Assembly (NCBI GenBank): GCA_964360335.1
Contig: CAYHVH010000001.1
Span: 23,426 to 87,425 of the forward strand
DNA from: an uncultured Candidatus Saccharibacteria bacterium
GTDB lineage: Bacteria > Patescibacteriota > Doudnabacteria > UBA920 > 2-01-FULL-46-14
Reading direction: 5' to 3'
Length of the DNA stretch: 64,000 nt
This document shows positions 47-49,325 of the stretch, in pieces. Every line of letters begins with the position of its first letter. The stretch's first letter is position 1. The notes beneath the pieces were generated by a model that was not told the origin of the DNA, made no database searches, and was given only the letters and a program-made list of their open reading frames with translations. The position numbers were made by a program, and so were the translations under genes.

Positions 47-132
47 TGTCATCCCGGCCAAGCCTGCCCCGTACTTGATACGGGGAGCCGGGATCCAGGA
101 AGTATGGATTCCGGATCAAGCCCGGAATGACA
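47..132. repeat. Family-B palindromic repeat, copy 1 (TGTCATCCCGGCC...GCCCGGAATGACA), overlapping the 3' end of the upstream ORF
   Basis: Terminal inverted repeat TGTCATCCCGG / CCGGAATGACA encloses a CCCCGTACTTGATACGGGG hairpin. Closely similar to copies at 48299-48324 and 49281-49325. Confidence 0.6.
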
Positions 133-481
133 ACTTGCGCGGTTTGGTTATATTTGGCTCCTTATCATATTTCGGTAAAACTATTTCCTTTATTTTTCCA
201 GACGGCCATTCGGCCACGGGAATACCTAAAGCATAGGCCAAAGCATTGGCTATGGCCACTCCGGTGCGCGTGGCAGAAAACGCCCCCGGGCCAGGATTAA
301 CGAGAATCTTAGTTAGCGCGGCGAGTTTAACTTTTTTCTTGCGCAAAAACTTCTCCAGTTCTGGAAGCAAGTTTTCCGAAAGACCTTCTACTGATTTTTC
401 CAGCCGAGCTAAAGTTTTCTGGTTTTCCAGAAGTGCAAGCGCCAAACGGCCCGATTGCGTTGTATCAATTAATAAATTCAT
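116..481 (-). CDS. Short TsaB/YeaZ-like protein (Kae1/TsaD-family inactive homolog), 121 aa
   Basis: N-terminus MNLLIDTTQSGRLALAL and a PGPGAFSATRTG motif resemble TsaB. The 3' end overlaps repeat copy B1, so the stop is likely supplied by the element. Confidence 0.4.
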   Translation of the reverse strand: MNLLIDTTQSGRLALALLENQKTLARLEKSVEGLSENLLPELEKFLRKKKVKLAALTKILVNPGPGAFSATRTGVAIANALAYALGIPVAEWPSGKIKEIVLPKYDKEPNITKPRKLSFRA

Positions 482-496
482 CCTATCTACTCACTA

Positions 497-1876
497 CTAT
501 CTACTAACTCCTAACTTTTTAAGTTCTTCCCTTGCCACCTCCCGCTCGTCCCAAGGCAGCTCCACACCGTCCACATTCAAGCTTTGCTCGTGCCCCTTGC
601 CCGTGATGGCCACCAAATCACCGCTTTTGGCTTGGTTGAGGGCAAATCTGATAGCTTCGCGGCGATCAGGGATGATAAACAAATCAGTATTAAGGCGCTT
701 GTTTTTTACGCCGGACGCAATTTCTTGGCAGATTTTCTCGGCTGGTTCCGACCGATTGTCCTCTCGGGTTAAAACTATGGAGTTGGCAAACTCGTCGGCG
801 GCGCTTCCCATCAGCGGCCGCTTGGTCGAATCACGCTCGCCGGCGGCGCCAAACACCATAATAATGCTGCCCGAAACTTTCGGCCGTAAAAACGACAGCA
901 ACTCTCGCAAGCCGTTCGGCGTATGAGCAAAATCCACCAGGACCAAAAAAGGCGCTTTGGTTTCCAAAAACTCCATCCGGCCGGAAACGGTTTTTATCTG
1001 ACTAAGCCCCTTTTGAATACTGGCCACTGGAATTTTGTAAGCTGTAGCTACGGCAATGGCCGCCAAGGCATTTTTGACATTAAACTGGCCGGGAAGGCTC
1101 AACTCTATGGGAAAGCCGCCTGCTGGAGTATGAACTGAGAGCTTGCTTCCTTCCAAACTTTCATTGATGTCGCTGGCCCAAATCTGTGCCCGACTACTGA
1201 AGCCGTAAGTAAGCAACCTCTCCTTTAATTCCTCCCCATCGCTTGGGGAGGAAGATCGGAAGGAAAGACCATCACCAGGAGACCCGCCTTCGGCAAGCTT
1301 CGGACGGGCAGGTGGGGAGAGGGGGAGAGAGGTCGAAATTAATTTCAATAGTTGTTCATAACTTTTATCCTCTCGGTTCAAAACCGCGTATTTCACATTT
1401 TTAAACACTTTTGCTTTTGCCCGCAAATACTCCCCATAAGTTTTATGATAATCCAAATGCTCGTGGGTGACATTGGTAATGACCGCCGTTTCAAAGGTAA
1501 TTCCCCATGTCCGGTATTGGTCTAAGGCGTGGGAGGTGACTTCCAAAACCGCGTACTGGGAGCCGGCTTTGACCATTTGCTGAAGCAGCCGTTGCAACAA
1601 AAAGGAGCTGGGCGTGGTGGTATGCAGGCCGGTGTCAAGCGCTTGTCGCCCGATCTGCGCATTAATTGTCGAGAGAAAAGACACTGGCAGCCCTGCGGCT
1701 TTCAAGATGCTCGCTACGAGATTAACCGTCGTGGTTTTGCCGTCAGTACCAGTGACCCCGATGACATGCAGTTTGCGGGACGGGAAGCCATAGATAAAAT
1801 TCGCGAGGATGGCTCCCGCGAGGTGGTAGTAATTGATAAGTTTTTGACCTAAAAATTTACGTAAAAAGTTTTTCAT
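497..1876 (-). CDS. murE: UDP-N-acetylmuramoyl-tripeptide synthetase (Mur ligase, MurE-like) carrying an in-frame repeat insertion
   Basis: P-loop GVTGTDGKTTT, Mur ligase middle and C-terminal domains, and a REDNRSEP motif (DNPR-like). 459 aa including a roughly 41-aa insert. Confidence 0.75.
   Translation of the reverse strand: MKNFLRKFLGQKLINYYHLAGAILANFIYGFPSRKLHVIGVTGTDGKTTTVNLVASILKAAGLPVSFLSTINAQIGRQALDTGLHTTTPSSFLLQRLLQQMVKAGSQYAVLEVTSHALDQYRTWGITFETAVITNVTHEHLDYHKTYGEYLRAKAKVFKNVKYAVLNREDKSYEQLLKLISTSLPLSPPARPKLAEGGSPGDGLSFRSSSPSDGEELKERLLTYGFSSRAQIWASDINESLEGSKLSVHTPAGGFPIELSLPGQFNVKNALAAIAVATAYKIPVASIQKGLSQIKTVSGRMEFLETKAPFLVLVDFAHTPNGLRELLSFLRPKVSGSIIMVFGAAGERDSTKRPLMGSAADEFANSIVLTREDNRSEPAEKICQEIASGVKNKRLNTDLFIIPDRREAIRFALNQAKSGDLVAITGKGHEQSLNVDGVELPWDEREVAREELKKLGVSR
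1213..1335. repeat. Family-A palindromic element inside murE, in frame (~123 bp)
   Basis: GCAACCTCTCC...CTCCCCATCGCTTGGGGAGG...GGAGAGAGGTCGAA. Encodes the loop SPGDGLSFRSSSPSDGEELKERLL. About 85% identical to the copy at 5981. Confidence 0.7.
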
Positions 1877-2008
1877 GAAACTTCCCTCCTCCCCAGGCGC
1901 CCGGCCTTCGTAGCCACTTCGGCGGAGTAGGCTGGGGAGGAGAAGGAGGAGAGGTCGAACTGTGGATCCTTGTATGCAACCTCTCTCCAGCTCTCCCCTC
2001 GCCAGGGG
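1872..2008. repeat. Family-A element, intergenic (murE start / ruvA stop), two units
   Basis: CCTCCTCCCCAGGCG...GGCTGGGGAGGAG...GGAGAGGTCGAAC and GCAACCTCTCTCCAGCTCTCCCCTCGCCAGGGGAGAGAG. Confidence 0.65.
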
Positions 2009-2021
2009 AGAGAGTTAAGCG

Positions 2022-2606
2022 TTATTGTTTCGCCAAAAGCCGCAACGCTTCCCGAATCCTTTCCTCGGAAGAGCTGAGGTTTTTCGGAATCTCCGCCAAA
2101 GCCTGCCGCGCCTCGGACCGGCTATAACCGAGCGCCAGCAAAACGTCCAGCACGTCGGCATGGGCTTTGGAGAGTTCGCGCAAGTCCTCTTCTTTGCCGC
2201 CCAAGTCCTCGCTGATCTTGTCTTTGAGCTCGACGATGAGCCGCTCGGCGGTCTTGCGGCCAATCCCCGAAACTTTGGTAAAAACGGCGGGGTCCTCATT
2301 AACAATTCCGGATTTGATCATCGCCAAGTCCGCCAGCGACATCACGGACAAAGCGAGCTTCGGTCCCACGCCCGAGACCGTGAGCAAGAGTTCAAAAAAC
2401 TCGAGCTCCGCAGTGCTGGTAAAACCATAAAGTGCGAGCTGGTCTTCGCGAACATGAGTATGAATATACAGCGAAAGTTTTTTGCCAACCTCCGAGGTCA
2501 AAGAAAGCTGGGGAATGACAAAAACTTTGTAGCCGACATAGTCGGTCGCCAGGATAATGTAGTTTTTGCGGATGGCTTTAACGGTGCCGGAGAGATAGCC
2601 GATCAT
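2022..2606 (-). CDS. ruvA: Holliday junction DNA helicase RuvA
   Basis: 194 aa. OB-fold N-terminus MIGYLSGTV, HhH motifs (LLTVSGVGPKLA, FTKVSGIGRKTAERL) and a C-terminal RuvB-binding domain. Confidence 0.85.
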   Translation of the reverse strand: MIGYLSGTVKAIRKNYIILATDYVGYKVFVIPQLSLTSEVGKKLSLYIHTHVREDQLALYGFTSTAELEFFELLLTVSGVGPKLALSVMSLADLAMIKSGIVNEDPAVFTKVSGIGRKTAERLIVELKDKISEDLGGKEEDLRELSKAHADVLDVLLALGYSRSEARQALAEIPKNLSSSEERIREALRLLAKQ

Positions 2607-2686
2607 GCAGGTATTATGCCTATTGAATAAGTTTTTTTCAATCTGCTAAAATGAAAGTTGACCCTGTCTAATCTAATGCTAATGCT

Positions 2687-2785
2687 GCCCTCTCCAGGCG
2701 TGGAGAGGGACTAAGGGAGAGGTCGCATTTGCGACATAATAAACGACCTCTCTTCCGGCCTCTCCCCACGCCTGGGGAGAGGAGA
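2687..2785. repeat. Family-A element, intergenic (ruvA / uvrB), two half-units; its 3' end GGAGAGGAGAAG lies at the Shine-Dalgarno position for uvrB
   Basis: CTCTCCAGGCGTGGAGAGGGACTAAGGGAGAGGTCGC ... CGACCTCTCTTCCGGCCTCTCCCCACGCCTGGGGAGAGGAGAAG, followed by the uvrB ATG at 2794. Confidence 0.65.
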
Positions 2786-2793
2786 AGTAGCTT

Positions 2794-4785
2794 ATGCAGA
2801 AATTCAAACTCGTCTCAAAATTTCAACCCGCGGGCGACCAACCCCAAGCGATTGAAAAACTCGTGGCTGGCATCAAAAAAGGCCATAATTTTCAAACCCT
2901 CCTGGGCGTTACCGGCAGCGGCAAGACTTTTACCATGGCCAACGTGATCCAGGAAATCCAAAAACCCACGCTGGTGATTTCCCATAACAAAACTTTGACT
3001 GCCCAGCTCGCCTCGGAATTCCAGGAATTTTTCCCGCAAAACGCCGTGCACTATTTCGTTTCCTATTACGACTACTACCAACCCGAGGCATATATTCCCC
3101 GCACTGACACTTATATTGAAAAAGAAACCGATATTAATGAGGAAATTGATAGGTTGCGAAATGCGGCCACCATGTCTTTACTGACCCGCAAAGACGTCCT
3201 GATTGTCGCCTCGGTATCCTGCATTTACGGCCTCGGCAACCCCAGCAACTATTTGGATTTGAGTCTGCTCCTCGAAACCGGCAAACCCTACAAGCGGGAA
3301 AAGCTTTTGCGGCGAATAGTGGATCTGCAGTACCTGCGCAATGACTTGGAACTGCGCCGAGGGACTTTCCGCTTGCGCGGCGACGTCTTGGAAATTGTGC
3401 CGGCGCACGAGGACCGAGTATTAAGATTGGACTTTTTTGGCGACACTCTGGAAAAAATCACGGAGTTCGAGGCGCTCACCGGCGAGGACGAAACAAAGCA
3501 CGACTCCTACCGCCTGTTTCCGGCCAAGCACTTCATCACCCCACACGACAAACTGCTTTTGGCCGCCGACAACATCCGCCAGGAACTGCGGGAGAGACTG
3601 CAGTATTTCAAAAGCCGCAATCTCCTTCTCGAAGCCCAGCGCATCGAACAGCGCACGAATTTCGACCTTGAGATGATGCTCGAGACCGGCTACGTCAACG
3701 GGATTGAAAATTACTCGCGACAGTTAGATTTCCGCAAACCGGGGGAACCACCCTCCACCCTCCTTGACTATTTTCCCGACGACTTTCTGTTGTTTATTGA
3801 CGAATCGCACATGACCGTGCCGCAAATTCGCGGGATGTATGAGGGAGATCACTCCCGCAAAAAAAACCTGGTCGACTACGGCTTTCGGCTGCCTTCGGCT
3901 CTGGACAACCGGCCTCTGAAATTTTCCGAGTTTTTGAAGAAAGTTGGCCGGGCGGTTTTTGTCTCGGCGACTCCGGCAGAATACGAAATCAACAAGTCCC
4001 GCCAAATCGTAGAACAGCTCGTGCGCCCGACGGGGCTCTTGGACCCGGAGGTTGAGGTCCGTCCAACCCGCCACCAGATTGACGACCTGCTCGAGGAGAT
4101 TCGGAAGCGCACCGACCAGGCCCAGCGCGTATTGGTAACGACTCTGACCAAAAAAATGGCCGAGGAACTCTCTGAGTACCTCAAGGAAATTGGGGTGAAG
4201 ACTCACTATCTGCACTCGGACATTGACACCTTTGAGCGCCTCGAGATCCTGCGCGATCTGCGCCTCGGAGTTTACGATGTAGTGGTGGGGATTAACCTTT
4301 TGCGGGAGGGCTTGGATCTGCCGGAAGTCTCCCTGATAGCGATCTTGGACGCTGACAAAGAAGGATACTTGCGCTCAAAAACCGCACTACTGCAGGTGAT
4401 GGGCCGCGCCGCGCGACATTTAGACGGCCACATCATCATGTACGCTGACCGCGTGACTGGCTCGATGCGCTCCGCCATGGACGAAGTCCAAAGACGCCGC
4501 AAAATCCAGGAGGAGTATAACCGGCGTCACGGCATTACCCCGCAGAGTATTATCAAAGAGGTCCGGGAAAGCCGTTTGGCGGGGGCAAAAATCGCTCCTG
4601 CAGAACAAAAAACTGAAATCGATTACGCCAAGCTCGACAAAAAAGAACTAAGATATTACCTTGAGGAGCTCAAAGACCGCATGGATTTGGCCTCAAAAAA
4701 TCTGGAATTTGAAAAAGCCGCCGCGCTAAGAGACGAGATCATCGAAATAAATAAAAGCCTCAAACGGACGAGGCATAAAGTTTGA
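2794..4785 (+). CDS. uvrB: Excinuclease ABC subunit B
   Basis: 663 aa. Walker A GVTGSGKT, helicase motifs, a UvrB interaction domain and a C-terminal UVR domain ([14 protein letters not shown]). Confidence 0.95.
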
Positions 4786-5177: not shown

Positions 5178-6410
5178 TCAACCCCGGAACAGCTTGTAAA
5201 GTTTAAACAGCGCGTAAAATGCCCGATTCAAAACCAGATCCCGGGCGCCGACACCGTAGACTTCCTTGCCCGTCACTCCGGCCGTGACATACCGGGTTTT
5301 GAACCGGGTAATCCCAGCCCAAGGATGGTCTGGTTCGTTCGGCGGGGCGACGCCCCACAAATCATACCATTTTTTGCCGCGTTGTCTGCTTAATTTGATT
5401 GCTTCCCAAAGGACAAGGCTTGGAGCATTGGCGGTTCGCTCTTTGGCAGAAGAAGCCGCGTACAAATAAGTTCCGGAATCACCGAAAAGCATAATGACGG
5501 CGGCAGCCAGGATTTCGCCTTGATATTCGCCGACCAGAAGCTCGGCGTGGGGTGCAAGCGACCTCTCCTTTGGTCCCTCCCCACGCCTGGGGAGGGAAGA
5601 AGAAAATAAAGCTTCTACTTGCGGAGTATTTGACCCCTCCTCAACCCTCCCCTCCTGCCCGTCCGGCAGGCGGGCGTCAGGAGAGGGAGTCATGAAGATA
5701 TCACGGAATTTCATGAATCGCTCGCGCGGCCAAGATACAATCCCGTCTCGTTTGGTGGTTTCCTCCAAAAGCTTCAAGAAAATTTCAAAAGCCCCTTTGT
5801 CTTGAGTCGCTACTCGCACTTTTACTCCCCTGCGCTGGGCGAGGCGGATATTGTAGCGGGATTTTTCGTGCATATTCTCCAAGAGTTCTTCCTCGCTTCT
5901 GCTTAAATCCACCAAAATCGTGCGAGCTGGCTCCATCTGCCGAAGCAAAATCTCGGGCTTTCTGAAACCCAGACCTGCAAGCGACCTCTCCTTCAACTCC
6001 TCCCCATCGCCTGGGGAGGAAGAGACAGAAGGATGCGGCGGATTAATTCTCGCCAAAACGGATTTTTCCTGCCGGCCGATTTCTTTGATTTTTTCTATCA
6101 AGGCCTGCATACCCCCTCTCCACTCTCCCCCTAAGTTAGGGGGAGAAAAAGAGGGGGTACCGCCCAATTCATGATTCGTAATTCTTGATTCGTCGAAAAT
6201 CGGTCCCTTCGGCACTTCCAAATAAGTTCTGCCAAACGGCAGCCTTTTTATTACGACTTGCGCTAAAAGCTGGTTCTGGATATCGAAGCGATAAACTTTG
6301 TGGCCGAGAGCGGCTTGAAACTGCCCCCATTGCCAGGACTGGAGGAAAGAGGAAGGAGAAGAGTTCCTGGCTACAAATTCATTCCAATTATCTTTAGAAA
6401 GTAGATTCAT
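5178..6410 (-). CDS. FemAB-family peptidoglycan aminoacyltransferase (lipid II amino-acid transferase-like) carrying two in-frame repeat insertions
   Basis: FemAB/FemX-like N-terminus (SSFLQSWQWGQF) and C-terminal GNAT-like fold. 410 aa including inserts. Confidence 0.65.
   Translation of the reverse strand: MNLLSKDNWNEFVARNSSPSSFLQSWQWGQFQAALGHKVYRFDIQNQLLAQVVIKRLPFGRTYLEVPKGPIFDESRITNHELGGTPSFSPPNLGGEWRGGMQALIEKIKEIGRQEKSVLARINPPHPSVSSSPGDGEELKERSLAGLGFRKPEILLRQMEPARTILVDLSRSEEELLENMHEKSRYNIRLAQRRGVKVRVATQDKGAFEIFLKLLEETTKRDGIVSWPRERFMKFRDIFMTPSPDARLPDGQEGRVEEGSNTPQVEALFSSSLPRRGEGPKERSLAPHAELLVGEYQGEILAAAVIMLFGDSGTYLYAASSAKERTANAPSLVLWEAIKLSRQRGKKWYDLWGVAPPNEPDHPWAGITRFKTRYVTAGVTGKEVYGVGARDLVLNRAFYALFKLYKLFRG
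5566..5690. repeat. Family-A element, in frame in the FemAB-like gene (unit 1)
   Basis: GCGACCTCTCCTTTGGTCCCTCCCCACGCCTGGGGAGGGAAGAAG... Encodes ...SLPRRGEGPKERSLAP... Confidence 0.65.
5981..6160. repeat. Family-A element(s), in frame in the FemAB-like gene (unit 2 plus a nested palindrome)
   Basis: GCGACCTCTCCTTCAACTCCTCCCCATCGCCTGGGGAGGAAGAGACAGAAGG (encodes SPGDGEELKERSLAG) and CCCCCTCTCCACTCTCCCCCTAAGTTAGGGGGAGAAAAAGAGGGGG (encodes GTPSFSPPNLGGEWRGG). Confidence 0.65.
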
Positions 6411-6501: not shown

Positions 6502-9276
6502 TTACACGGCTTGCCGTGTCATCTCTTCCCAATTATCGCCGAACTTGGCTTCCACGACGAGGGGAACTTTGAGTTTATAAATATTCTGCATGATTTTGGT
6601 AATTTTTCCGGCATAGTCATCAACTTTCTTTTCGGCTATTTCAAACACCAGCTCATCGTGAACCTGTAAGAGCAACCGGCAATCCTCGCGAGACGTCAAA
6701 TTTTCCTCCGCCAGTTTGTTCATCGCCAGTTTGATAATATCCGCCGAAAGCGATTGAAACGGCATGTTGATGGCCGCTCGTTCAGCAGCGGCGCGAACTG
6801 GCCACTGCGAAGAATTAATCTCGGGGAGATACCGGAGTCGCCCGAGTTCGTTTTTGACGTAGCCCGAGCGGCGCGTTTCCCCAACTATTTCCTCAAGGTA
6901 GTGAGTCAAGCTGTGATAGGTTTCGAAATATTTATCGATAAAATCTTGGGCTTCGCCTTGGGACACTCCTTTGATCCGGCTCTTGAGACCATAAGCGGAA
7001 AGGCCGTAGAGTACCCCGAAATTTATGGTCTTGGCATCTCGGCGCATTTCCGGGGTAATTTCGACCTCTCCTCCAGCTCCTCCCCTCGCCAGGGGAGAAG
7101 GGAGGGATTGAAAAATCTCGCGAGCTGTTGCTTCGTGAATGTCGCCGCCTTCGTGAAAAACTTTAATCATTTTCTCGTCGCCCGACAAATGGGCGGCCAG
7201 ACGAAGCTCAATCTGGGAGTAGTCCACGGACAGCAATTTATACCCTGTTTCGGCAACGAACGCCCCGCGGATTTTTCGACCAAACTCGGTGCGGATCGGA
7301 ATGTTCTGGAGATTCGGTTCGCTGGAGGACAATCGCCCGGTGGCAGTAACTGTCTGGTTAAAACTTGTGTGTAGCCGCCGCGTTTGAGGACTAACCAAAT
7401 CCGGCAAGGCATCTAGATAAGTATTTTTAAGTTTCGTTAATTCCCGCCATTCCGATATCAAATCAATAATCGGATGCAATCCTTTGAGCTTCTCGAGTTC
7501 CGTGGCCGCCGTGGACAGGCCGGTTTTGCCTTTTTTGAGCTCCTCGGTGGGAATCCCCAATTTCTCAAATAATATCTGTTTTAGCTGGATCGGGCTGCCG
7601 ATGTTAAATCTCTCGCCCGAAAGCCGGTAAATCTTCTGTTCGAGTTTCGAAATCTCCGCCGTGGCCTCGGCCGACAACTCCTTCAAGCACGACGGATTGA
7701 CCTTTACTCCCCAGCGTTCCATTTCCGCCAAAACTCTCACCAGCGGCATTTCGATCTCATAAAAAATTTTCTCTAAATCTTTACTTCTTAGCTCTTTTTC
7801 CAGTTTTTGTTTTAGCCGGAAAGTGTAGTCCACATCCTCGCAACAGTAAGCCGCGACCTCTCGGACCGGCACTTCGGCCATGCTAATCTCTTTTTTGCCT
7901 TCGCCAATCAAACTTTTAATCGGGGTTTTCCGGAAGCCAAACTCGGTAAAACTTAGGGTGTCCAAATCGAAATTCCGCGCCCCGGGGTTTAAAAGATAGG
8001 CGGCAATCATCGTGTCAAAAAACTCTCCTCCCAAAATCACTCCGGCCTTTTGCAAAATCAAATAATCATACTTGAGATTATGGCCGATTTTCAGAACTTC
8101 CGGATTCTGCAAAATTTCCGTGAGGGCCGGGGAAATCATCGCCGCCGGCAGGTAAAAGGCCCGGTTTTCTTGCCACGCCAACCCGAGGCCGAGAAGCTCA
8201 GCCTGCATCGGGTGAACCGAGGTCGTTTCGGTATCAATAGCGATTTGTTTCTGCCTCTCAAGCTCAGTAATGATGCTTTGGAATTTTTTCGGCGTATCAA
8301 GGAGCTGATAGTCAAATTCCTCCTCGCCCCCTCTGCTCCCTCGAGCTCTACTTAGGGCAGGCTCATGAGGGGAGTGGGGGATGTCAGTCTTTGGCAGTTT
8401 ATCCAAAAGTGAACGGAACTCCAGCTCCTGAAAAAGTTTAAAAACTTTCTGTTCATCATAAGCCAGAAGCCGGGCCTGGGTTAAATCCAGTTTCACCGGG
8501 AGGTTTTTGACGATTGTTGCCAATTTTTTGGAAATTTCCGCATCCGCCCGGTGTTCCAGAAGCAGTCGAGCGACGCGCGGCTTGAGCGCCGAGTGGTCTT
8601 TGCCGACTAAATATTTATAAATTCCTTCCAAGGTCTTAAATTTTTGCAGGAGCTCGGTCGCGGTTTTTTCCCCGATGCCTTTGACCCCGGGAATGTTATC
8701 CGAAGGATCACCGCGCAGGGCTTTAAAATCTAGAAGTTCCTCGGGTCTGAGGCCATATCGCTCCCGAACCGCCCCCACGTCATAAAGTTTGGTTTCGGTC
8801 AAGCCTTGCTTAGGAGCATAGACTTTCACCCGTTCGTCTACTAATTGCAGGGTGTCCAAATCCCCGGTTAAAATCACAGTATCCAAATCTTCCTGCTTCC
8901 GGGCTTTTTCGGCCAGAGTGCCAATCAAATCATCAGCTTCATAACTTTCCAGTTCATAGACTGGAAGATTAAAAGCTCTGACCAATTCTTTGACGCGGGG
9001 AATTTGCTCATAAAGTTCGGCGGGGGCTTTAATTCTTGTTGCCTTATAAGGCTCATAAATTTTTTCCCGGAAAGTTGGCGCCGGAAAGTCAAACGTCACT
9101 GCCACGTACTCGGGCCGCAGTTCTTTGAGGGCTTTCAAAAACAACAGGGCAAAACCGTAAACGCCGTTTACTGGCTCGCCCTTTTTGGTGGACAGGTGAG
9201 GAATCGCGTGAAAGCCGCGGTGGACCAAAGCATTGCCGTCTACCAATAATAAAACTGGTTTATCTTTGCTGGACAT
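6502..9276 (-). CDS. polA: DNA polymerase I
   Basis: 924 aa. 5'-3' exonuclease, 3'-5' exonuclease-like and polymerase domains (motif RRDAKTINFGVLYG, and the motif-C region SQIELRLAAHLSGDE). Two in-frame repeat insertions. Confidence 0.95.
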   Translation of the reverse strand: MSSKDKPVLLLVDGNALVHRGFHAIPHLSTKKGEPVNGVYGFALLFLKALKELRPEYVAVTFDFPAPTFREKIYEPYKATRIKAPAELYEQIPRVKELVRAFNLPVYELESYEADDLIGTLAEKARKQEDLDTVILTGDLDTLQLVDERVKVYAPKQGLTETKLYDVGAVRERYGLRPEELLDFKALRGDPSDNIPGVKGIGEKTATELLQKFKTLEGIYKYLVGKDHSALKPRVARLLLEHRADAEISKKLATIVKNLPVKLDLTQARLLAYDEQKVFKLFQELEFRSLLDKLPKTDIPHSPHEPALSRARGSRGGEEEFDYQLLDTPKKFQSIITELERQKQIAIDTETTSVHPMQAELLGLGLAWQENRAFYLPAAMISPALTEILQNPEVLKIGHNLKYDYLILQKAGVILGGEFFDTMIAAYLLNPGARNFDLDTLSFTEFGFRKTPIKSLIGEGKKEISMAEVPVREVAAYCCEDVDYTFRLKQKLEKELRSKDLEKIFYEIEMPLVRVLAEMERWGVKVNPSCLKELSAEATAEISKLEQKIYRLSGERFNIGSPIQLKQILFEKLGIPTEELKKGKTGLSTAATELEKLKGLHPIIDLISEWRELTKLKNTYLDALPDLVSPQTRRLHTSFNQTVTATGRLSSSEPNLQNIPIRTEFGRKIRGAFVAETGYKLLSVDYSQIELRLAAHLSGDEKMIKVFHEGGDIHEATAREIFQSLPSPLARGGAGGEVEITPEMRRDAKTINFGVLYGLSAYGLKSRIKGVSQGEAQDFIDKYFETYHSLTHYLEEIVGETRRSGYVKNELGRLRYLPEINSSQWPVRAAAERAAINMPFQSLSADIIKLAMNKLAEENLTSREDCRLLLQVHDELVFEIAEKKVDDYAGKITKIMQNIYKLKVPLVVEAKFGDNWEEMTRQAV
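7061..7106. repeat. Family-A element in frame in the polA fingers region
   Basis: TCGACCTCTCCTCCAGCTCCTCCCCTCGCCAGGGGAGAAGGGAGGG. Encodes SLPSPLARGGAGGEVE immediately upstream of the RRxxKxxNFG O-helix. Confidence 0.65.
8318..8385. repeat. Degenerate family-A-like palindromic insert in the polA interdomain linker
   Basis: CCCCCTCTGCTCCCTCGAGC...GAGGGGAGTGGGGG. Encodes HSPHEPALSRARGSRGGEEE. Confidence 0.4.
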
Positions 9277-15726: not shown

Positions 15727-15802
15727 CAACATAAGTCCATATTGTCTACGTTTTTATGTAATTACATAATGTTGTAGACAAGCGAATTTAGCAAAAAGTA
15801 AA

Positions 15803-15838
15803 AAAGGAGACAGACTACAACGCGGTCTGTCAGCGCTT
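15803..15838 (-). repeat. 36-bp hairpin repeat copy 1 (AAAAAGGAGACAGACTACAACGCGGTCTGTCAGCGCT); terminator of the minus-strand RibA-like gene
   Basis: Identical copy at 17683-17717. On the minus strand it reads GACAGACCGCGTTGTAGTCTGTC then TCCTTTTT. Confidence 0.7.
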
Positions 15839-17653: not shown

Positions 17654-17682
17654 ATTTTCTGGACTAGGAAAAGGGGATAAAA

Positions 17683-17717
17683 AGGAGACAGACTACAACG
17701 CGGTCTGTCAGCGCTAA
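17683..17717 (-). repeat. 36-bp hairpin repeat copy 2; terminator of the minus-strand OMP-like gene
   Basis: Identical to 15803-15838. On the minus strand the hairpin is followed by TCCTTTTTAT. Confidence 0.7.
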
Positions 17718-22858: not shown

Positions 22859-23997
22859 AAATTTATTTTTTTAAATTCCCCCTGGGAGCTTCGCTCGGCG
22901 GAGCAGAATTCCATTCCTTGCAACTGGCCGAATATTTCCAAAGGCAAGGGCATGAAGTTCAGCTCTTTAGTTCGGACCGCCGGCTGTTCCGGCTCTTCGA
23001 ACAGCGCCGCTTGCCAAGAAGACGATTATTCGTGGGCTACGAGCCGACCAGCAAACCTGCCCTGCTGCTTTGGCCGCTAACTTACTTTCTGGCCAAACGA
23101 AAATTCCTAAAAATTCTGGCGGCTGTCCCAAACGGCAGCGTGTTCCTTTTTCAGAGTTTAACCGAAAAATTGATTCTGACCGGCCCTGCCCTCAAACACG
23201 GGGTAAAAATTTTCTGGCTTGAGCATAAAATCCCGGGCCGCTGGCTTTGGCAAAACCCCCTAAAATTCTGGTATCTTAAGTTGTCAAGACTGGTTCAGTT
23301 GGTGACTGTGTCGAATTTTGCCAAGCAAGAATTTATTAAACTCGGTGTCCCTGCAAAGAATATTCAAATAATCTACCCCGGCATAAAAACGGGCGGCCTT
23401 GAGCGACCGCCTTTTACCCGCTCCTACACCATCGGCCTTTTGTCGCGGCTCGAACCCGAGAAGGGAATATTAGATTTTCTGCAAATCCTTGGCCCTTATC
23501 TCAAAAAACGCCCGAATTGGCAAGTCCTGGTTGCCGGAACGGGAAGTCAGAATTCCCAAATCCAGAAACTCATTACCGAAACTGCTCTGACAAACCAAGT
23601 CCGACTCTTTGGGTTTGTATCCTCTTTAGACGACTTTTTCTCCCAAATTGCGGTTTTGGTTTATCCCTCCCTTGTCCCCGAATCTTTTGGCCTAAGTATC
23701 GCCCAGGCTCAAGGGCGGGGTATTCCAGTGGTCGCCTCGAGCCGCGGGGCCTTGTCGGAAAGTGTCACGCATCAAAAAACTGGCTTTCTGGTAGAGCCGG
23801 GGAGTCCTGGGCAGTGGGTGGCCTATCTCGAAAAACTAACAAACCCTAAAATCTACCAAGAGATGTCGGCACAAGCCAGGCTGGCCGCGGTAAACTTTGC
23901 CGAAGAGAAAATGTTCACCGCTTTCCACAAACTTTTTTTTCCAGCTAAAATCGGTAAATCACTCGCTTCACCGCTTGGTGGCCGACAGTCTGATTGA
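22855..23997 (+). CDS. Glycosyltransferase family 1
   Basis: Starts MKIYFFKFPLG; the ATG overlaps the flippase stop (ATGA). C-terminal GT1 motif (ESFGLSIAQAQGRGIPVVAS). Confidence 0.75.
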   Translation: MKIYFFKFPLGASLGGAEFHSLQLAEYFQRQGHEVQLFSSDRRLFRLFEQRRLPRRRLFVGYEPTSKPALLLWPLTYFLAKRKFLKILAAVPNGSVFLFQSLTEKLILTGPALKHGVKIFWLEHKIPGRWLWQNPLKFWYLKLSRLVQLVTVSNFAKQEFIKLGVPAKNIQIIYPGIKTGGLERPPFTRSYTIGLLSRLEPEKGILDFLQILGPYLKKRPNWQVLVAGTGSQNSQIQKLITETALTNQVRLFGFVSSLDDFFSQIAVLVYPSLVPESFGLSIAQAQGRGIPVVASSRGALSESVTHQKTGFLVEPGSPGQWVAYLEKLTNPKIYQEMSAQARLAAVNFAEEKMFTAFHKLFFPAKIGKSLASPLGGRQSD

Positions 23998-26660: not shown

Positions 26661-28017
26661 TATAGATTCGGTTGGTAATCAGGCTTATTTCATGTTTGAG
26701 GGCTTCCTTTTCCTTTCCTACCCTTTGGACTTTGTCAATGGCGTGGATGACTGTGGTGTGGTCGCGCCCGCCGAAAATTTCCCCTATCATCGGTAGACTG
26801 GTCTCGAGTTCTTTCCTGATAATATACATCGCCACCTGGCGGGGGAGGACGTACTCTTTTTTGCGGGATTGTTTGACGAGGTCGTCAATTGTCACATTGT
26901 AGAAGTCCGCCACGACCTCCATAATTTTTTTTGCCGAGGCCATCCGTTTTTTTGGAGGGAAAACAATGTTGGCAAGGATATTTTTCACCTTGTCCAAGGT
27001 TGGGGAGGTGTTGTTGAGCTGACAAAAAACCATCAGGCGGTTAAGCGAGCCCTCGAGTTCGCGAATGTTAGTCTCCACGGTTTGGGCAATATACTCAAGC
27101 ACCCCTGGCCCAACATCGTAACCTCGCTCTTTGGCTTTTGAGCGCAAGATTGCAAGCCGAGTTTCGAAGTCCGGCGGCTGGACGTCTGCAATCATCCCCC
27201 ATTCAAAGCGGGAAACCAGCCGCTCTTCAATGGCAGGGATTTCCTTTGGTAAACGGTCCGAAGATAGCACTATTTGTTTGTTGATTTGATGTAAGGCGTT
27301 GAAGGTGTGAAAAAATTCTTCCTGGGTTTGTTCCTTGCCTGCCAAAAATTGTACGTCATCGATGAGGAGGACGTCTACCCCCCGATAGAGATTTTTAAAA
27401 GTTTCCCCTTTGTTGTAGCGAACCGCTTGAATGAATTCATTGGTAAATTTTTCCGTGGTGACATACAAAACTTGCTTGGCCACCCCACTATTTAAAAAAT
27501 CATTCCCGATCGCCTGCAGGAGGTGGGTTTTTCCCAGACCGACCCCGCCGTAAATGAACAACGGGTTGTAAGCCCTTCCCGGATTTTTGGTTACTCCCTG
27601 AGCGGCGGCAACGGCCAATTCGTTGTTGCCACCAACAATAAAGTTCAAGAAAGTGTATTTTGGGTTAAGCCCCGTGCTGAGGGAGGAAGACTTGACGGTT
27701 GGGGTATGTTCGGGCGAAGCGGGAAGTGACACAATCCTGGGAGGAGGTTCGGCCGCCCGGCGGTTATAGCCACCGGTAATTTGGTATTCGATTTGTTTGA
27801 TTTCGGGGTTAACAGCGCGGATAGCCCGCAGAATTGCCTGATGGAACTTGTTCATCAGCCATTCTTTGGTAAAGGCGTTGGGCACACCAATAACCACTTT
27901 TCCCGAACTTTGTTCCAAAATTGCGGTGTTTTTAAACCAGGTGGTGAAGCTCGCCTTGGACAGGGAGAGCTCAAGGTTTCCCAGAACCGCCTGCCAGATT
28001 TGTTTAGTGGAGTTCAC
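26653..28017 (-). CDS. dnaA: Chromosomal replication initiator DnaA
   Basis: AAA+ motifs (GGVGLGKTHLL, LIDDVQF) and a C-terminal DnaA-box-binding domain. The real N-terminus (IWQAVLGNLELSLSKASFTTWF) implies a GTG start near 28017. The longer ORF extension to 28233 is rejected. Confidence 0.85.
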   Translation of the reverse strand: MNSTKQIWQAVLGNLELSLSKASFTTWFKNTAILEQSSGKVVIGVPNAFTKEWLMNKFHQAILRAIRAVNPEIKQIEYQITGGYNRRAAEPPPRIVSLPASPEHTPTVKSSSLSTGLNPKYTFLNFIVGGNNELAVAAAQGVTKNPGRAYNPLFIYGGVGLGKTHLLQAIGNDFLNSGVAKQVLYVTTEKFTNEFIQAVRYNKGETFKNLYRGVDVLLIDDVQFLAGKEQTQEEFFHTFNALHQINKQIVLSSDRLPKEIPAIEERLVSRFEWGMIADVQPPDFETRLAILRSKAKERGYDVGPGVLEYIAQTVETNIRELEGSLNRLMVFCQLNNTSPTLDKVKNILANIVFPPKKRMASAKKIMEVVADFYNVTIDDLVKQSRKKEYVLPRQVAMYIIRKELETSLPMIGEIFGGRDHTTVIHAIDKVQRVGKEKEALKHEISLITNRIYMD

Positions 28018-28211
28018 TTTTGTACCCCATTCTTTTTGCTTATGTTTTTCCCTTGCTGCTATTCTAACAGAATGGTTATCAACATGTAAAATAATAGGAA
28101 ATCCCCAGGAATAAGCCAAAAAAAGGATTGTATGTGGATAGGGTGTGTAAAACCAGTGCATCAAATTTTTGAATTGGCCAAATTCGATTTGGGAAGGTAT
28201 AATTAGAAAAG
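28018..28211. promoter_or_regulatory. AT-rich dnaA/rpmH divergent intergenic region with DnaA-box-like 9-mers (candidate oriC / dnaA promoter)
   Basis: TTATCAACA and TGTGGATAG are each one mismatch from the TTATCCACA box. The region is AT-rich. Confidence 0.4.
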
Positions 28212-38786: not shown

Positions 38787-38862
38787 TGGTGGGCCAGGAT
38801 GGATTCGAACCATCGACCCCGGCTTTATAAGAGCCGTGCTCTAACCGCTGAGCTACTGGCCC
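38787..38862 (-). tRNA. tRNA-Ile with anticodon UAU (CCA encoded)
   Basis: GGGCCAGTAGCTCAGCGGTTAGAGCACGGCTCTTATAAAGCCGGGGTCGATGGTTCGAATCCATCCTGGCCCACCA. Clean cloverleaf. Anticodon loop is CTTATAA. Overall similarity to tRNA-Ile. Confidence 0.75.
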
Positions 38863-45590: not shown

Positions 45591-46145
45591 ATGTGGTGGA
45601 AAAAACCGCGGTGGTTTTTCACAGGGTTATACTTGGTATTCGTTGAGGTCTTTATTCACGGCCGGGATGTCCGCGAGGGGTATTCTAAAGATATTCTGTC
45701 CGGACTTTATAATCAGCGGGCTATTCTAGAACTTGCAGTTCGAGCATTAGCGGATGCTAGGCGCGTCGGCAAATGGCTTGCGGTCGTGCACATTGATCTT
45801 GATCACTTCAAAGCCTACAATGACCAGTTTGGTCATTTACGGGGCAACGAAGTGATTCGGCAGTTTGGTCGAATCTTGACTTCTGGCTTGCGGCCGACGG
45901 ATTGGGCTGGCAGATTTGGCGGAGACGAATTTCTGCTGATTCTCCCCGGCGCCGATCCTTATGAGGCCAGCTGTGTAGTACAGAGGCTTAAGCAACTTGG
46001 TCCTCAAATTCCCTTCAGCTTTGGGGTACACAGTGAGCTTGTGATGCGAGGAAGCCAAGTCACGCTCGAGCATTTTATCGAGCGGGCAGACCAAGAAATG
46101 TACGCTCATAAACGGTCCAAGCAACAATTCGCAGTCCAAGTGTAA
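45591..46145 (+). CDS. GGDEF-domain diguanylate cyclase (single N-terminal TM helix)
   Basis: RFGGDEFLLIL active-site motif. AGGAGG SD precedes the ATG at about 45591. Confidence 0.8.
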   Translation: MWWKKPRWFFTGLYLVFVEVFIHGRDVREGYSKDILSGLYNQRAILELAVRALADARRVGKWLAVVHIDLDHFKAYNDQFGHLRGNEVIRQFGRILTSGLRPTDWAGRFGGDEFLLILPGADPYEASCVVQRLKQLGPQIPFSFGVHSELVMRGSQVTLEHFIERADQEMYAHKRSKQQFAVQV

Positions 46146-46212
46146 GTGGTCTTCCGGCCGGAAAGGTGCAAACCTTTCCGGCCGCGTTTTTTTTCGATAT
46201 AATTGCAATACT

Positions 46213-48270
46213 ATGGCTGACCTTGTGAAACTCAAAGAACTCGCCAGGCTCGTTCGTTACTATATTCTGGTCTCGACCACGGCCGCGGGGTCCGGGCACC
46301 CAACATCTTCGCTGTCTGGCGTGGAACTGATGACGGCATTGATGTTTGGCGGCTATTTTCGCTTTGACTTGAATCGTCTGGGATACGCAAACAATGACCG
46401 GCTGATTTTCTCCAAAGGCCATGCCTCGCCCCTCTTCTATGCGCTGTGGGCAGCGGCTGGCGCGCTGACGGAAAAAGAGCTTTTGACTTTGCGCAAATTT
46501 GGCAGCCCTTTGGAGGGGCATCCTACCCCGGCATTTCCCTATACCGAAGCGGCGACAGGCTCTTTGGGACAAGGGTTGTCAATTGGCGTGGGCATGGCCC
46601 TTAATGCCAAGCTTGACCGGCTTCCCTATCGCACTTATGTGCTTTTGGGGGACAGTGAAATGGCCGAGGGCTCGCAATGGGAGGCGATTCAGCTCGCCGC
46701 GTACTATAAACTTGATAATTTGGTCGGCGTTCTCGATGTCAATCGTTTGGGTCAACGAGGGCAGACGATTTACGGGCATGATATTAAAGCTTATCAGAAA
46801 CGCATCGCGGCGTTCGGGTGGAAGACTATAGTCGTGAATGGGCATAATTTGAATGAGATTTTGAAAGCGTACAAACAGGCGACCCCCTCTTCATCTCCCC
46901 CTATCCCGTTTGACGGGACAGGGGGAGAAAAGAGAGGGGGTGGAAGGCCGGTGATGATCATTGCCAAAACCATTAAAGGTAAAGGAGTTTCATTTATCGA
47001 AAACAAAGAAGGCTGGCATGGGAAGGCGCTTTCCCCGGAGGATTTGAGGAAGGCACTACGAGAATTGGGGAAAGTCGACAAGAAGATGCGAGGAGAGATG
47101 GCAAAGCCGGAGAGAATTAGTAGACCGGAGACAGTAGATAGTAGATCGGAAAGCAAAGAAAAAATTAATTACAAAATCGGAGAAGAGGCGGCAACAAGGA
47201 AGGCTTACGGTAACGCCCTAGTCAGGATTTATCCGAAGTTTCCGAATATCGTAGTCCTCGACGCCGAGGTTTCCAATTCAACTTACGCGGAGATATTCAA
47301 GGAAAAATATCCGGACCGGTTTTTGGAGATGTTTGTGGCGGAGCAGAATATGGTGGGTGCGGCTCTTGGTCTTTCGCGGCGCGGCAAGATCCCGTTTGTT
47401 TCGACCTTTGCCGCGTTCCTGACGCGCGCTTTTGACCAAATCCGAATGAGCCAGTATTCGGCCGCCAACATCAAGTTTGTGGGCTCGCACGCCGGGGTGT
47501 CCATCGGCGAGGACGGGCCGTCGCAGATGGGCCTCGAGGATTTGGCAATGTTTCGCAGTATTTTAGGAAGCGTGGTTTTGTATCCTTCGGATGCGGTTTC
47601 AACCGATAAGCTTGTGGAAGCGGCAGCTAAGCACAAAGGCATTGTCTATATCAGAACAACGCGAATGGAAACCCCGGTGCTTTATTCCCCGGGGCAGGAG
47701 TTCAAAATCGGCGGGAGTAAAGTTTTGCGCCATAGCCGGAAAGACGTGGCGACAGTGCTGGCGGCCGGGATAACATTGCATGAAGCGTTGGCCGCTTATG
47801 AAGAACTCAAGAAGCAAGGGGTTTTGATTCGGGTGATTGACTTGTACAGCATCAAACCGATTGATAAAAAGACATTGACGCAGGCTGCCAAAGAAACGGG
47901 AGCGATAATCACGGTCGAGGACCATTATCCCGAGGGCGGGATTGGGGAAGCGATTAGAAGCGCTCTTTCTGACCTCCCTCCCCAAAGCATGGGGAGGGAT
48001 AAAGGGAGAGGTTTTCCGCCAGCCCGCCCCGCTTCGCTTGGCGAGGCCGGGGAGGCGGATCCGCCTTGGGCAGAGAAACTCCCTGGTAAAACCGACCTCT
48101 CTCCTTCTCTCCCCATCACCTGGGGAGAGGGTAGGATTATCTCTTTAGCGGTGCGCAAAATGCCGCGAAGCGGCAAACCGCAGGAGCTTTTGGATTATGA
48201 AGAGATATCGCGCGATGCTATTATTAAGGAAGTAAAGAGAATTGTTTCTAAATCGTCACCTCGAATTTAA
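46213..48270 (+). CDS. tkt: Transketolase (full length) carrying 2-3 in-frame repeat insertions
   Basis: ThDP-binding motifs (GHPTPAF..., LLGDSEMAEGSQWEA), pyrimidine-binding and C-terminal domains. 685 aa. Confidence 0.9.
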   Translation: MADLVKLKELARLVRYYILVSTTAAGSGHPTSSLSGVELMTALMFGGYFRFDLNRLGYANNDRLIFSKGHASPLFYALWAAAGALTEKELLTLRKFGSPLEGHPTPAFPYTEAATGSLGQGLSIGVGMALNAKLDRLPYRTYVLLGDSEMAEGSQWEAIQLAAYYKLDNLVGVLDVNRLGQRGQTIYGHDIKAYQKRIAAFGWKTIVVNGHNLNEILKAYKQATPSSSPPIPFDGTGGEKRGGGRPVMIIAKTIKGKGVSFIENKEGWHGKALSPEDLRKALRELGKVDKKMRGEMAKPERISRPETVDSRSESKEKINYKIGEEAATRKAYGNALVRIYPKFPNIVVLDAEVSNSTYAEIFKEKYPDRFLEMFVAEQNMVGAALGLSRRGKIPFVSTFAAFLTRAFDQIRMSQYSAANIKFVGSHAGVSIGEDGPSQMGLEDLAMFRSILGSVVLYPSDAVSTDKLVEAAAKHKGIVYIRTTRMETPVLYSPGQEFKIGGSKVLRHSRKDVATVLAAGITLHEALAAYEELKKQGVLIRVIDLYSIKPIDKKTLTQAAKETGAIITVEDHYPEGGIGEAIRSALSDLPPQSMGRDKGRGFPPARPASLGEAGEADPPWAEKLPGKTDLSPSLPITWGEGRIISLAVRKMPRSGKPQELLDYEEISRDAIIKEVKRIVSKSSPRI
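46880..46945. repeat. Family-A-type nested palindrome in frame in tkt
   Basis: CGACCCCCTCTTCATCTCCCCCTATCCCGTTTGACGGGACAGGGGGAGAAAAGAGAGGGGGTGG. Encodes TPSSSPPIPFDGTGGEKRGGG. Confidence 0.65.
47970..48140. repeat. Composite family-A insertion (three palindromic units, ~171 bp) in frame in the tkt C-terminal domain
   Basis: TGACCTCCCTCCCCAAAGCATGGGGAGGGATAAAGGGAGAGG ... GGCGGATCCGCC ... CCGACCTCTCTCCTTCTCTCCCCATCACCTGGGGAGAGGG. Encodes a 57-aa loop. Confidence 0.7.
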
Positions 48271-48298
48271 TTCGGGAACCAGGATTAAAACTTCTGGA

Positions 48299-48324
48299 TT
48301 CCCCGATTAAATCGGGGAATGACA
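48299..48324. repeat. Family-B repeat, copy 2 (partial: TTCCCCGATTAAATCGGGGAATGACA) upstream of glpX
   Basis: Shares the ...CGGGGAATGACA terminus with copies at 47-132 and 49281-49325. Confidence 0.5.
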
Positions 48325-48328
48325 AAGA

Positions 48329-49279
48329 ATGCAAATGGATCGAAATTTGGCTTTAGAATTTGTGCGCGTCACCGAAGCGGCGGCAATTGCCGCCTCCTCC
48401 TGGATTGGCCGCGGCGACAAAAACGCCGCTGATCAGGCCGCGGTTGACGAGATGCGCGCGCGGTTCAACCAGATTGATTTTGCCGGTACGATCGTTATCG
48501 GCGAGGGAGCCAAGGACGAAGCTCCGGAGCTTTACACCGGCGAGAAAGTCGGCACCGGCAAAGGCCCGGAAATGGATCTGGCCGTTGATCCTCTGGAAGC
48601 CACGGACAGTGTGGCCCACGGCCGCTACAACGCGATTTCCGTGATTGTCGCCGGGCCCAAAGGGTCACTCCTTTCTGCGCCGGATACTTATATGAATAAA
48701 CTGGCCGTAGGCAAAGCCGCTGCTAAAGTCGTGGATTTGGATTTTCCCGTAAAACAGAATATTGAGCGCGTGGCCAAGTCCTTGGGCAAAGACATTGGGG
48801 AAATTACGGTCGTGGTTTTGGACCGCGAGCGGCATGAGGGGTTGATCAAGGAAATTCGCGCTGCCGGCGCGCGGGTGCGCACCATCACTGACGGCGACGT
48901 GGCGGGCGCTATCGCTCCGTGCCTGCCCGAGTCGGGGATCGATATGCTTTTGGGAATTGGCGCCTCGACAGAAGCAGTGCTCGCCGCCGCGGCCATGAAA
49001 ATCCTGGGCGGCGAGCTTTTCTGCCGGTTTGCGCCTAAGAATGAGAAAGATCAGAAAGCAATTTTGGAGGCCGGGATCAAAGATCTAAATAAAGTCTACT
49101 CTGCTGAGGACTTGGCAAAGGGCAAGCAGTTAACCTTTACTGCCACGGGCGTGATTGACGGGCCGCTTTTAGAGGGAGTGCGGTTTGCGAAGCACCGCAT
49201 CATCACCCATTCGGTCGTGATGCGCGGGTCGTCTGGTACAATACGGTACATCACCACTCATCATCATACTACTAAGTAA
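48329..49279 (+). CDS. glpX: Fructose-1,6-bisphosphatase class II (GlpX)
   Basis: 316 aa. GlpX N-terminal signature (RVTEAAAIA..GRGDKNAAD.AAV). Confidence 0.85.
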   Translation: MQMDRNLALEFVRVTEAAAIAASSWIGRGDKNAADQAAVDEMRARFNQIDFAGTIVIGEGAKDEAPELYTGEKVGTGKGPEMDLAVDPLEATDSVAHGRYNAISVIVAGPKGSLLSAPDTYMNKLAVGKAAAKVVDLDFPVKQNIERVAKSLGKDIGEITVVVLDRERHEGLIKEIRAAGARVRTITDGDVAGAIAPCLPESGIDMLLGIGASTEAVLAAAAMKILGGELFCRFAPKNEKDQKAILEAGIKDLNKVYSAEDLAKGKQLTFTATGVIDGPLLEGVRFAKHRIITHSVVMRGSSGTIRYITTHHHTTK

Positions 49280-49280
49280 T

Positions 49281-49325
49281 TGTCATTCCGGCCAAAGTTT
49301 ACCCCGCACTTGATGCGGAATGACA
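49281..49325. repeat. Family-B repeat, copy 3 (TGTCATTCCGGCCAAAGTTTACCCCGCACTTGATGCGGAATGACA)
   Basis: Near-identical to the 5' half of copy 1, plus the terminal inverted repeat. Confidence 0.6.

Follow-up and report, generated by a model that had tools for sequence, protein, structure and literature searches.

Three intergenic repeats in a Doudnabacteria-like genome are very probably Ssn-related motifs of the CGTC-tagged REP family

Repetitive extragenic palindromes (REPs) with an unpaired terminal CGTC tag, often TGTC and also CCTC, were described by Di Nocera, De Gregorio and Rocco (2013, BMC Genomics 14:522; PMC3733652). According to the consulted sections of that paper, the units have 8-9-bp stems that nearly always open with A-T residues, 4-5-nt loops (5 nt in CGTC-2 to CGTC-4) and a CCA tail. 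They occur mainly as head-to-head dimers, in which the tags lie outside and 1-100 bp of spacer separate the two units, heterodimers being found in CGTC-2 and CGTC-3, and now and then they contribute in frame to proteins. CGTC-1 equals the Neisseria repeat dRS3, and CGTC-1 and CGTC-4 equal Rickettsia RPE-6 and RPE-4, respectively. The same sections report no association with transposases and no CGTC REPs beside genes for REP-associated tyrosine transposases (RAYT). Here, this family is compared with three copies of a small repeat in a 64,000-nt stretch (the window; positions 23,426 to 87,425 of contig CAYHVH010000001.1) from an uncultured bacterium of the candidate phyla radiation (CPR) with a Doudnabacteria lineage. 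The three copies are very probably Ssn-related motifs (SRM), which are equivalent to CGTC-tagged REPs, copies 1 and 2 being head-to-head dimers and copy 3 plausibly an internally deleted dimer.

SRM were defined by Chenal et al. (2025, Nat Commun 16:2388; PMC11893778) as a generalization of the Neisseria NTS, CGTCATTCCCGCGMAVGCGGGAATCYRG. In the consulted parts of this source, SsnA, a GIY-YIG protein of 94 aa (cd10448), binds the hairpin as single-stranded DNA (ssDNA) only, acting on one strand, cuts a few nucleotides upstream and reduces transformation by NTS-bearing DNA; binding and cleavage data come from the Neisseria and Wolbachia homologues. At least one SRM lies near 71% of ssn homologues and SRM lie on both sides in 42%, and its authors likened the SRM-ssn-SRM arrangement to insertion sequence (IS) elements and to RAYT/REP.

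Copy 1 (47-132), read directly in the window, is TGTCATCCCGGCCAAGCCTGCCCCGTACTTGATACGGGGAGCCGGGATCCAGGAAGTATGGATTCCGGATCAAGCCCGGAATGACA (TGTCATCCCGG...CCGGAATGACA) and contains the inner hairpin CCCCGTA-CTTGA-TACGGGG at 67-85. Copy 3 (49281-49325) is TGTCATTCCGGCCAAAGTTTACCCCGCACTTGATGCGGAATGACA; its hairpin, CCGCA-CTTGA-TGCGG, is one compensatory pair apart from that of copy 1, and both copies start with TGTCAT and end with ATGACA. Three copies, with these two sequences, had been reported by an earlier reading of the letters alone (the sequence-only reading), and all were recovered at the reported coordinates. Copy 2, which had been taken for a right half only (48299-48324), runs from 48254 to 48324 and forms a complete dimer. 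Its decayed left unit is identical to the family consensus at 21 of 29 positions (binomial p ~1e-7) and has the expected position and orientation. The '11-bp terminal inverted repeats' described for copy 1 correspond to the outer portions of its two hairpin units, which face each other in inverted orientation. For copy 3, described as a 45-bp deletion derivative, the sequence is exact and an internal deletion of a dimer is plausible, because the 41 nt that it lacks relative to copy 1 are bounded by CGG on each side in copy 1. Its AATGACA is the end of the right unit, and it carries no CCA tails.

Each of the three copies occupies a short gap between two genes that run in one direction. Copy 1 lies between an open reading frame (ORF) for a TsaB-like protein and one for an ABC ATPase, both on the minus strand; copy 2 is placed between tkt and glpX and copy 3 between glpX and a DUF2090 gene, all of them on the plus strand (Table 1). 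As had been noted, copies 2 and 3 thus bracket glpX and copy 1 overlaps the end of the TsaB-like ORF, whose last codons, RKLSFRA, derive from copy 1, ...LSFRA and the TGA stop being supplied by its right unit. Similarly, tkt takes its final codons, SSPRI, and its TAA stop (48268-48270) from the left unit of copy 2. By the names given to homologues of GlpX and TsaB, the organism is a CPR bacterium close to Candidatus Doudnabacteria. Near-identical contigs with all three copies unchanged were present in Hainich H51 groundwater metagenomes.

Two further features were observed next to the copies. Of two possible glpX start codons (window 48329-48337), the ATG at 48329 comes just past the end of copy 2, whereas that at 48335 (MDRNL...) is the more likely one and is also the start in relatives and in the 314-aa database entry P0003. 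With TATATT 16 nt downstream, the ATGACA at the end of copy 1 forms a -35/-10-like match (10/12; 127-154, plus strand) that points out of the element, antisense to tsaB, and was at chance level in the scan.

Table 1. Coordinates of the repeat units, their host genes and the family A repeats in the window
Feature	Position	Strand	Description
Copy 1 left unit, long form	47..98	+	TGTC tag; stem ATCCCGG/CCGGGAT around internal loop; inner hairpin 67-85; CCA tail
Copy 1 spacer	99..103	.	GAAGT
Copy 1 right unit, short canonical	104..132	-	TGTC-ATTCCGGG-CTTGA-TCCGGAAT-CCAT; R1 42.2 bits, E 3e-8
Copy 2 left unit, decayed	48254..48282	+	CGTCACCTCGAATTTAATTCGGGAACCAG = CGTC-ACCTCGAA-TTTAA-TTCGGGAA-CCAG
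Copy 2 spacer	48283..48293	.	GATTAAAACTT, 11 nt
Copy 2 right unit	48294..48324	-	TGTCATTCCCCGATTTAATCGGGGAATCCAG: TGTC-ATTCCCCGAT-TTA-ATCGGGGAAT-CCAG; R1 20.6 bits, E 0.007
Copy 3, plausibly an internally deleted dimer	49281..49325	+	TGTC tag, 5' arm and inner hairpin of long unit, joined to AATGACA
TsaB-like ORF, 121 aa, PF00814	116..481	-	3' end overlaps copy 1; ABC ATPase next downstream
Transketolase (tkt)	46213..48270	+	C-terminus lengthened by copy 2 left unit
glpX, class II fructose-1,6-bisphosphatase	48335..49279	+	Bracketed by copies 2 and 3
Family A repeats	1211-1255, 2741-2785, 5556-5600, 5979-6023, 7062-7098, 36170-36214, 47977-48014, 51647-51684		

The units were compared feature by feature with the CGTC-tagged REPs. 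Unpaired TGTC tags occupy 47-50 and 49281-49284 and, when the minus strand is read, 129-132, 48321-48324 and 49322-49325; the tag at 48254-48257 is CGTC. The stems agree with the 8-9-bp type with A-T and T-A as first pairs: the copy 1 right stem (ATTCCGGG/TCCGGAAT) consists of seven Watson-Crick pairs and one G-T, the copy 2 right stem (ATTCCCCGAT/ATCGGGGAAT) of 10 bp and the copy 1 left stem of 7 bp around the inner hairpin, while the decayed left unit of copy 2 has lost two outer pairs. The loop is CTTGA in the copy 1 right unit as well as in the inner hairpin of copy 1 and that of copy 3, while the copy 2 right unit has a variant loop of 3 nt. Tails are CCAG (copy 1 left), CCAT (copy 1 right) and CCAG (both copy 2 units), with none in copy 3; the dimers have their tags outward and spacers of 5 nt (copy 1) and 11 nt (copy 2). 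Shared with the described family are the unpaired CGTC/TGTC tag, AT-first stem of 8-9 bp, 5-nt loop, CCA tail and head-to-head dimers (mostly heterodimers with outward tags). The family and the copies also have in common that they follow closely on the 3' end of an ORF, in gaps between genes of one direction, and that they occasionally contribute codons. The copies differ in the extended, bulged left unit of copy 1 with its 7-bp AT-stem around a second hairpin, in the 10-bp stem and 3-nt loop of the copy 2 right unit, in low copy number and in their host, a CPR bacterium versus the five other phyla listed in the consulted sections of PMC3733652.

The published SRM motif, HGTCWYN(0-2)YYVSBRHN(0-5)WNVSBRGN(0-2)RNCYNB, fits 48294-48324(-) exactly and also fits 49294-49325(-), against an average of 0.57 matches in shuffled windows. 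Like NTS/SRM, the copies are oriented hairpins whose palindrome is preceded by GTC and followed by C; they differ in the loop (CTTGA versus GMAV), in a copy number far under the hundreds in Neisseria and in that no ssn gene was seen in the ~71 kb of sequence covered.

Window scans placed the similarity beyond chance. The pattern TGTCATYCCGGCCAAN{4,8}CCCCGYACTTGATRCGG, covering the shared left end and the hairpin, matched twice in the window versus 0.00 times in 100 shuffles. The bare 9-mer GGAATGACA was uninformative (12 matches versus 13.4 expected), its extra matches at 2512, 16416 and 42731 being chance matches in coding sequence. A covariance model, R1, was built from units of unrelated genomes and other phyla only and was run on the window with filters off. 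Apart from the two scores given in Table 1, it produced partial matches to the inner hairpins at 68-84 (copy 1) and 49303-49319 (copy 3). Nothing else in the 64 kb was significant, so the window holds exactly three sites, and no units were present in the 7 kb beyond its left edge (contig L136). A literature search with the literal repeat sequences returned primers and irrelevant matches only.

For the breadth of the family, 185,579 species genomes were scanned with TGTCATYCCGGN{8,14}CCCGNNCTTGANNCGG. At least 118 loci from many phyla were found, versus a rough estimate of our own of ~0.2 chance matches. Hosts among the matches listed are Betaproteobacteria, Coxiellaceae, Alphaproteobacteria, Fibrobacter (many loci in one metagenome-assembled genome, MAG), Chloroflexota/Dehalococcoidia, Planctomycetota, Bacteroidota, Actinomycetota, Treponema and one Parcubacteria MAG. 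The building block is ~29 nt long and consists of a (T/C)GTC tag, a stem beginning with AT, mostly a CTTGA loop, the complementary stem and CCA. The usual element among these matches is a unit, a short spacer and an inverted unit with tags outward; units also occur singly, as tandem halves and in clusters. The long unit of copy 1 agrees with a Polaromonas unit at 48 of 53 positions and with a Chloroflexota unit at 47 of 54.

Stem conservation was assessed on 55 distinct units from these loci, which were chosen by unpaired anchors only (GTCAT, six bases, CYYGA) after leaving out everything the database pattern could have ascertained as well as tandem half-units. Stem cells were paired in 87.7% versus 73.4% in column shuffles, and double-change cells numbered 61 versus 20.6, a count reached by none of 500 shuffles. 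When the partner was slid by 1-3 columns, pairing fell to 19-46% (maximum 45.5%). The unit stems covary, which supports selection on the hairpin and speaks against a resemblance to CGTC REPs that ends at the tag. The same units served to build R1.

Two variants of the unit were seen in the databases. Tandem half-unit arrays, e.g. (TGTCATCCCGGGCTTGACC)n, in genome loci L026, L013, L050, L054 and L083 repeat tag, 5' arm and loop and break directly after CTTGA in the loop; the consulted sections of PMC3733652 and PMC11893778 make no mention of them. The short SRM unit GTCATYCCGGNCTTGANCCGGRATCC was found on 97 viral or prophage contigs of IMG/VR (L220-L299 and further loci), with six copies in 8.5 kb of L253; these contigs may carry the unit from one phylum to another or may represent host sequence within the viral bins. 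An earlier viral scan with the long-unit pattern had found nothing.

The link to Ssn was recovered from the ORFs beside the repeats. In ORF clustering among the at least 118 loci listed, a small GIY-YIG ORF (PF01541) abuts units in four loci from four phyla, the four ORFs being 43-62% identical to one another; in one of the loci examined, the Parcubacteria MAG locus L076, ssn adjoins such units. The association was then measured with a metagenome protein scan (80 loci) and an independent strict hairpin scan, 69 genes having enough flank. A unit lay within 150 bp on both sides of 26 of these 69 genes, upstream only of 8, downstream only of 9 and on neither side of 26. Tags pointed outward in 39 versus 6 cases upstream and 39 versus 11 downstream, and unit density beside ssn was ~27 times that beyond 500 bp. 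R1 reproduced this picture. The 43 flanked genes of 69, with 26 flanked on both sides, agree with the published 71% and 42%, and the SRM-ssn-SRM arrangement is thereby reproduced in the 80 metagenome loci.

Two other repeat systems resemble the copies. The Neisseria dRS3/NIME and the Rickettsia RPE-4 and RPE-6 repeats belong to the same CGTC superfamily and form mosaic arrangements, with in-frame protein contribution in Rickettsia (consulted sections of PMC3733652). The dRS3 element differs in its ATTCCC-N8-GGGAAT form and its large clusters, the window having isolated dimers. It is also a target for phage and IS110-type integration. REPINs and RAYTs (Bertels and Rainey 2011) share with the present family the arrangement of two hairpin units in opposite orientation, a nuclease gene in single copy with units on its flanks and, here at the tsaB end, an occupied site that persists across related genomes. 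They differ by their GTAG tag and by an HUH/Y1 transposase in place of the GIY-YIG nuclease.

Several observations weigh against assigning the copies to the SRM/Ssn system. No ssn gene was detected in the 64-kb window by a hidden Markov model of the four Ssn ORFs run over window ORFs of at least 50 aa, nor in the 7 kb to its left. The known sites amount to three in the resulting ~71 kb, CGTC REPs typically numbering tens to thousands per genome, and are too few to demonstrate a large active population. The right unit of copy 1 is one base off the published SRM motif, the long left unit and the decayed unit fall outside it, and in copy 3 the palindrome is not followed by the C on which Ssn binding critically depends in Neisseria. 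We know of no demonstration that Ssn copies units. PMC11893778, in its consulted parts, shows binding, cleavage and the transformation effect only.

The copies might instead be functional RNA hairpins that are retained in operon spacers to protect 3' ends, to direct processing or to terminate transcripts; they would then be REP-like on the level of RNA, and their repeated occurrence would be a secondary matter. Their position directly after stop codons between co-directional genes fits such a role, as does their folding: copy 1 reaches -40.7 kcal/mol (z = -4.1 versus shuffles) and the others have z values of -2.5 to -3.8. Moreover, the consulted sections of PMC3733652 argue that many REPs are transcribed. 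However, the copies are not intrinsic terminators: a T-run is missing after each of them, and the terminator scan reported none of the three. Rfam searches at the gathering threshold returned three tRNAs only for the window, and region 1-200 gave sub-threshold noise only. Folding is about as strong on one strand as on the other, relatives lack copy 2 and have a tkt-glpX gap of 2 bp, and Ssn binds ssDNA and not RNA (consulted parts of PMC11893778). As the primary explanation this is improbable; a role at the RNA level is compatible with an SRM identity as a secondary effect, and an effect of the copies on their operons through RNA is possible.

The sequence-only reading had called the copies REP/MITE-like, of which the REP half holds, given the CGTC-tagged REP features and the head-to-head dimers. 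Classical miniature inverted-repeat transposable elements (MITEs) are deletion derivatives of IS with a DDE transposase, moved in trans via their terminal inverted repeats and leaving target-site duplications. Copies 1 and 3 do run from TGTCAT to ATGACA, and the copies are small, AT-poor, intergenic and variable in length. Target-site duplications were looked for at all three copies and none was found, the flanks TCATACTTGTTC/ACTTGCGCGGTT, TTGTTTCTAAAT/AAGAATGCAAAT and CTACTAAGTAAT/GGCAGGTACAAG containing no direct repeats; an ACTTG on both sides of copy 1 is offset by 3 nt, has no parallel at the other copies and was put down to chance. Among the at least 118 loci, no flank was consistent and no transposase family recurred, the recurrent clusters being ABC ATPases, BipA, RluB, thioredoxin and similar proteins. 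The supposed terminal inverted repeats are independent self-folding hairpin units, which exist alone, as tandem halves and in clusters as well, and the consulted sections of PMC3733652 likewise report that no association with transposases was found. The protein that does accompany the family, the small GIY-YIG ssDNA nuclease Ssn, is no transposase of any known IS family. A MITE origin is therefore largely refuted already and, in our estimate, very unlikely.

Mobilization as GTAG-type REPs or REPINs by a RAYT, an IS200/IS605-like tyrosine transposase, would account for the same overall design of an oriented, intergenic hairpin unit in inverted dimers. The tags here are TGTC/CGTC and not GTAG, the gene flanked by this family encodes a GIY-YIG nuclease, and CGTC REPs were not found beside RAYT genes in the consulted sections of PMC3733652; we give this explanation hardly any credence. 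Chance similarity confined to the short GGAATGACA motif, which as a 9-mer alone does occur at chance rate, is refuted by long-pattern matches versus zero expectation, the R1 E-values (3e-8 and 0.007) and ~90% identity to units of other phyla, and its probability is negligible.

Two other origins were considered and dropped: an HUH/rolling-circle nick site, on account of the resemblance of the loop CTTGAT(A) to the pC194/phiX174 nick, since the GIY-YIG association and the Ssn paper explain the family, and a tRNA T-arm, an unsupported resemblance.

The history of the sites was followed in relatives. Relatives whose GlpX is 84-86% identical (L122-L133; Rifle and other aquifers) lack copy 2, their tkt stop lying 2 bp from the glpX start, and no unit was present at the tkt-glpX junction of a Doudnabacteria MAG with 80% identical GlpX (L134). 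The tkt-glpX regions of L122, L123, L130 and L134 likewise gave no units. Because of this absence from relatives with 80-86% identical GlpX, copy 2 is specific to the lineage of the window. At the position of copy 3, the glpX/DUF2090 junction of relatives carries an unrelated hairpin, CCCCAGTTAAAT...ATTTAACGGGG. A derivation of the copy 3 segment CCAAAGTTTAC from the ancestral hairpin GCCAAAGATTTAAC of the relatives was rejected, the match being too short to be distinguished from the variable internal loop of the family itself.

At the end of tsaB, homologue tails RKLSFRA, TKMSFRT and RKLSS hint at SRM-derived codons in several lineages. Two loci from other CPR lineages with a 67-68% identical TsaB-like protein confirm this, their 3' junction being occupied: in L317 (1755-1782) by an SRM unit, ...ACTAAGA/TGTCATTCCGGACTTGATCCGGAATC, and in L318 (843-915) by a dimer, ...CGTAAGT/TGTCATCCTGA...CAGAATGACA/GATATT (slashes mark junctions). 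The L318 dimer is of a different subtype (ATCCTGA.../...CAGAAT) and sits at the same junction as copy 1. Since both junctions are occupied, the one in L318 by another subtype, the copy 1 site is either old or repeatedly used, with changed content. It is conceivable, if rather doubtful, that SRM sites are long-lived genomic 'slots' whose content is rewritten by an Ssn-driven copy-and-replace process, which would have its start or end point in the hairpin loop and would pass from phylum to phylum. This idea draws on the occupation of the tsaB 3' junction at the same nucleotide in three CPR lineages by different subtypes and on the ~90% identity of the long unit of the window to Betaproteobacteria and Chloroflexota units; the half-unit arrays that break after CTTGA and the SRM units on the 97 viral contigs would fit it. 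If true, copy-and-replace would explain how these repeats multiply.

Other features of the window were recorded as well. The copies are distinct from family A, as had been claimed; the family A repeats (CGACCTCTCC...CCTCCCCAyGCCTGGGGAGGG) lie in frame inside ORFs. Noted together with them were a tkt product of 685 aa versus 628-632 aa in relatives, a transaldolase of 298 versus 282 aa and a Mur ligase ORF with a Pro/Gly-rich insert. SRM dimers in the Chloroflexota MAG loci L022 and L059 carry a family-A-like hairpin (CCCTCTCCCCTACGAGGGAGAGGG) in their spacer, so both repeat types of the window co-occur elsewhere. The ORF at 50148-50921, between the DUF2090 gene and transaldolase, has no Pfam hit and is called as 196-207 aa in sister contigs; the 84% relatives (L122-L125) lack it and have 95 bp between the two neighbouring genes. 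The sequence AAAAAGGAGACAGACTACAACGCGGTCTGTCAGCGCT, which contains a hairpin, forms a perfect direct repeat of 37 bp at 15801-15837 and 17679-17715, the copies being 1878 bp apart. ARAGORN called a tRNA-Ile with anticodon UAU at 38787-38862 (-), an uncommon bacterial way of reading AUA. Around 28000-32000, GC skew changes from negative to positive, with genes on the minus strand to the left and on the plus strand to the right; this is likely the replication origin.

The observation of a repeat family is confirmed as genuine but ordinary, and a small, partly decayed SRM/CGTC-REP population in this genome is the best-supported account. In other bacteria, the unit as ssDNA is bound by its cognate 94-aa GIY-YIG nuclease, Ssn, which cleaves at a distance of a few nucleotides on the 5' side of the hairpin; the ssn genes themselves are typically placed between two outward-facing units. 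Ssn is established as molecular partner in those bacteria; by analogy with RAYTs acting on REPINs, it may also copy the repeats, which would then spread or be maintained via its action on ssDNA hairpins. In the Doudnabacteria-like CPR genome, the repeats would form a small, partly decaying population that is tolerated just past stop codons inside operons and was probably recruited as last codons and stops of tsaB and tkt.

The repeats are a new host record for a system described in 2013 and 2025. This removes a candidate novelty, the 'second repeat family' of the sequence-only reading belonging to a described repeat/nuclease system, and modestly extends that system to a Doudnabacteria-like CPR bacterium with a reduced genome, a kind of host without mention in the consulted sections of PMC3733652 and PMC11893778. 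It also provides two clean cases of repeats that give core genes, tkt and tsaB, their C-terminal codons and stops. Finally, it yields cross-lineage data of the kind needed for understanding SRM turnover, from a young site and from an apparently old one in which subtypes were exchanged.

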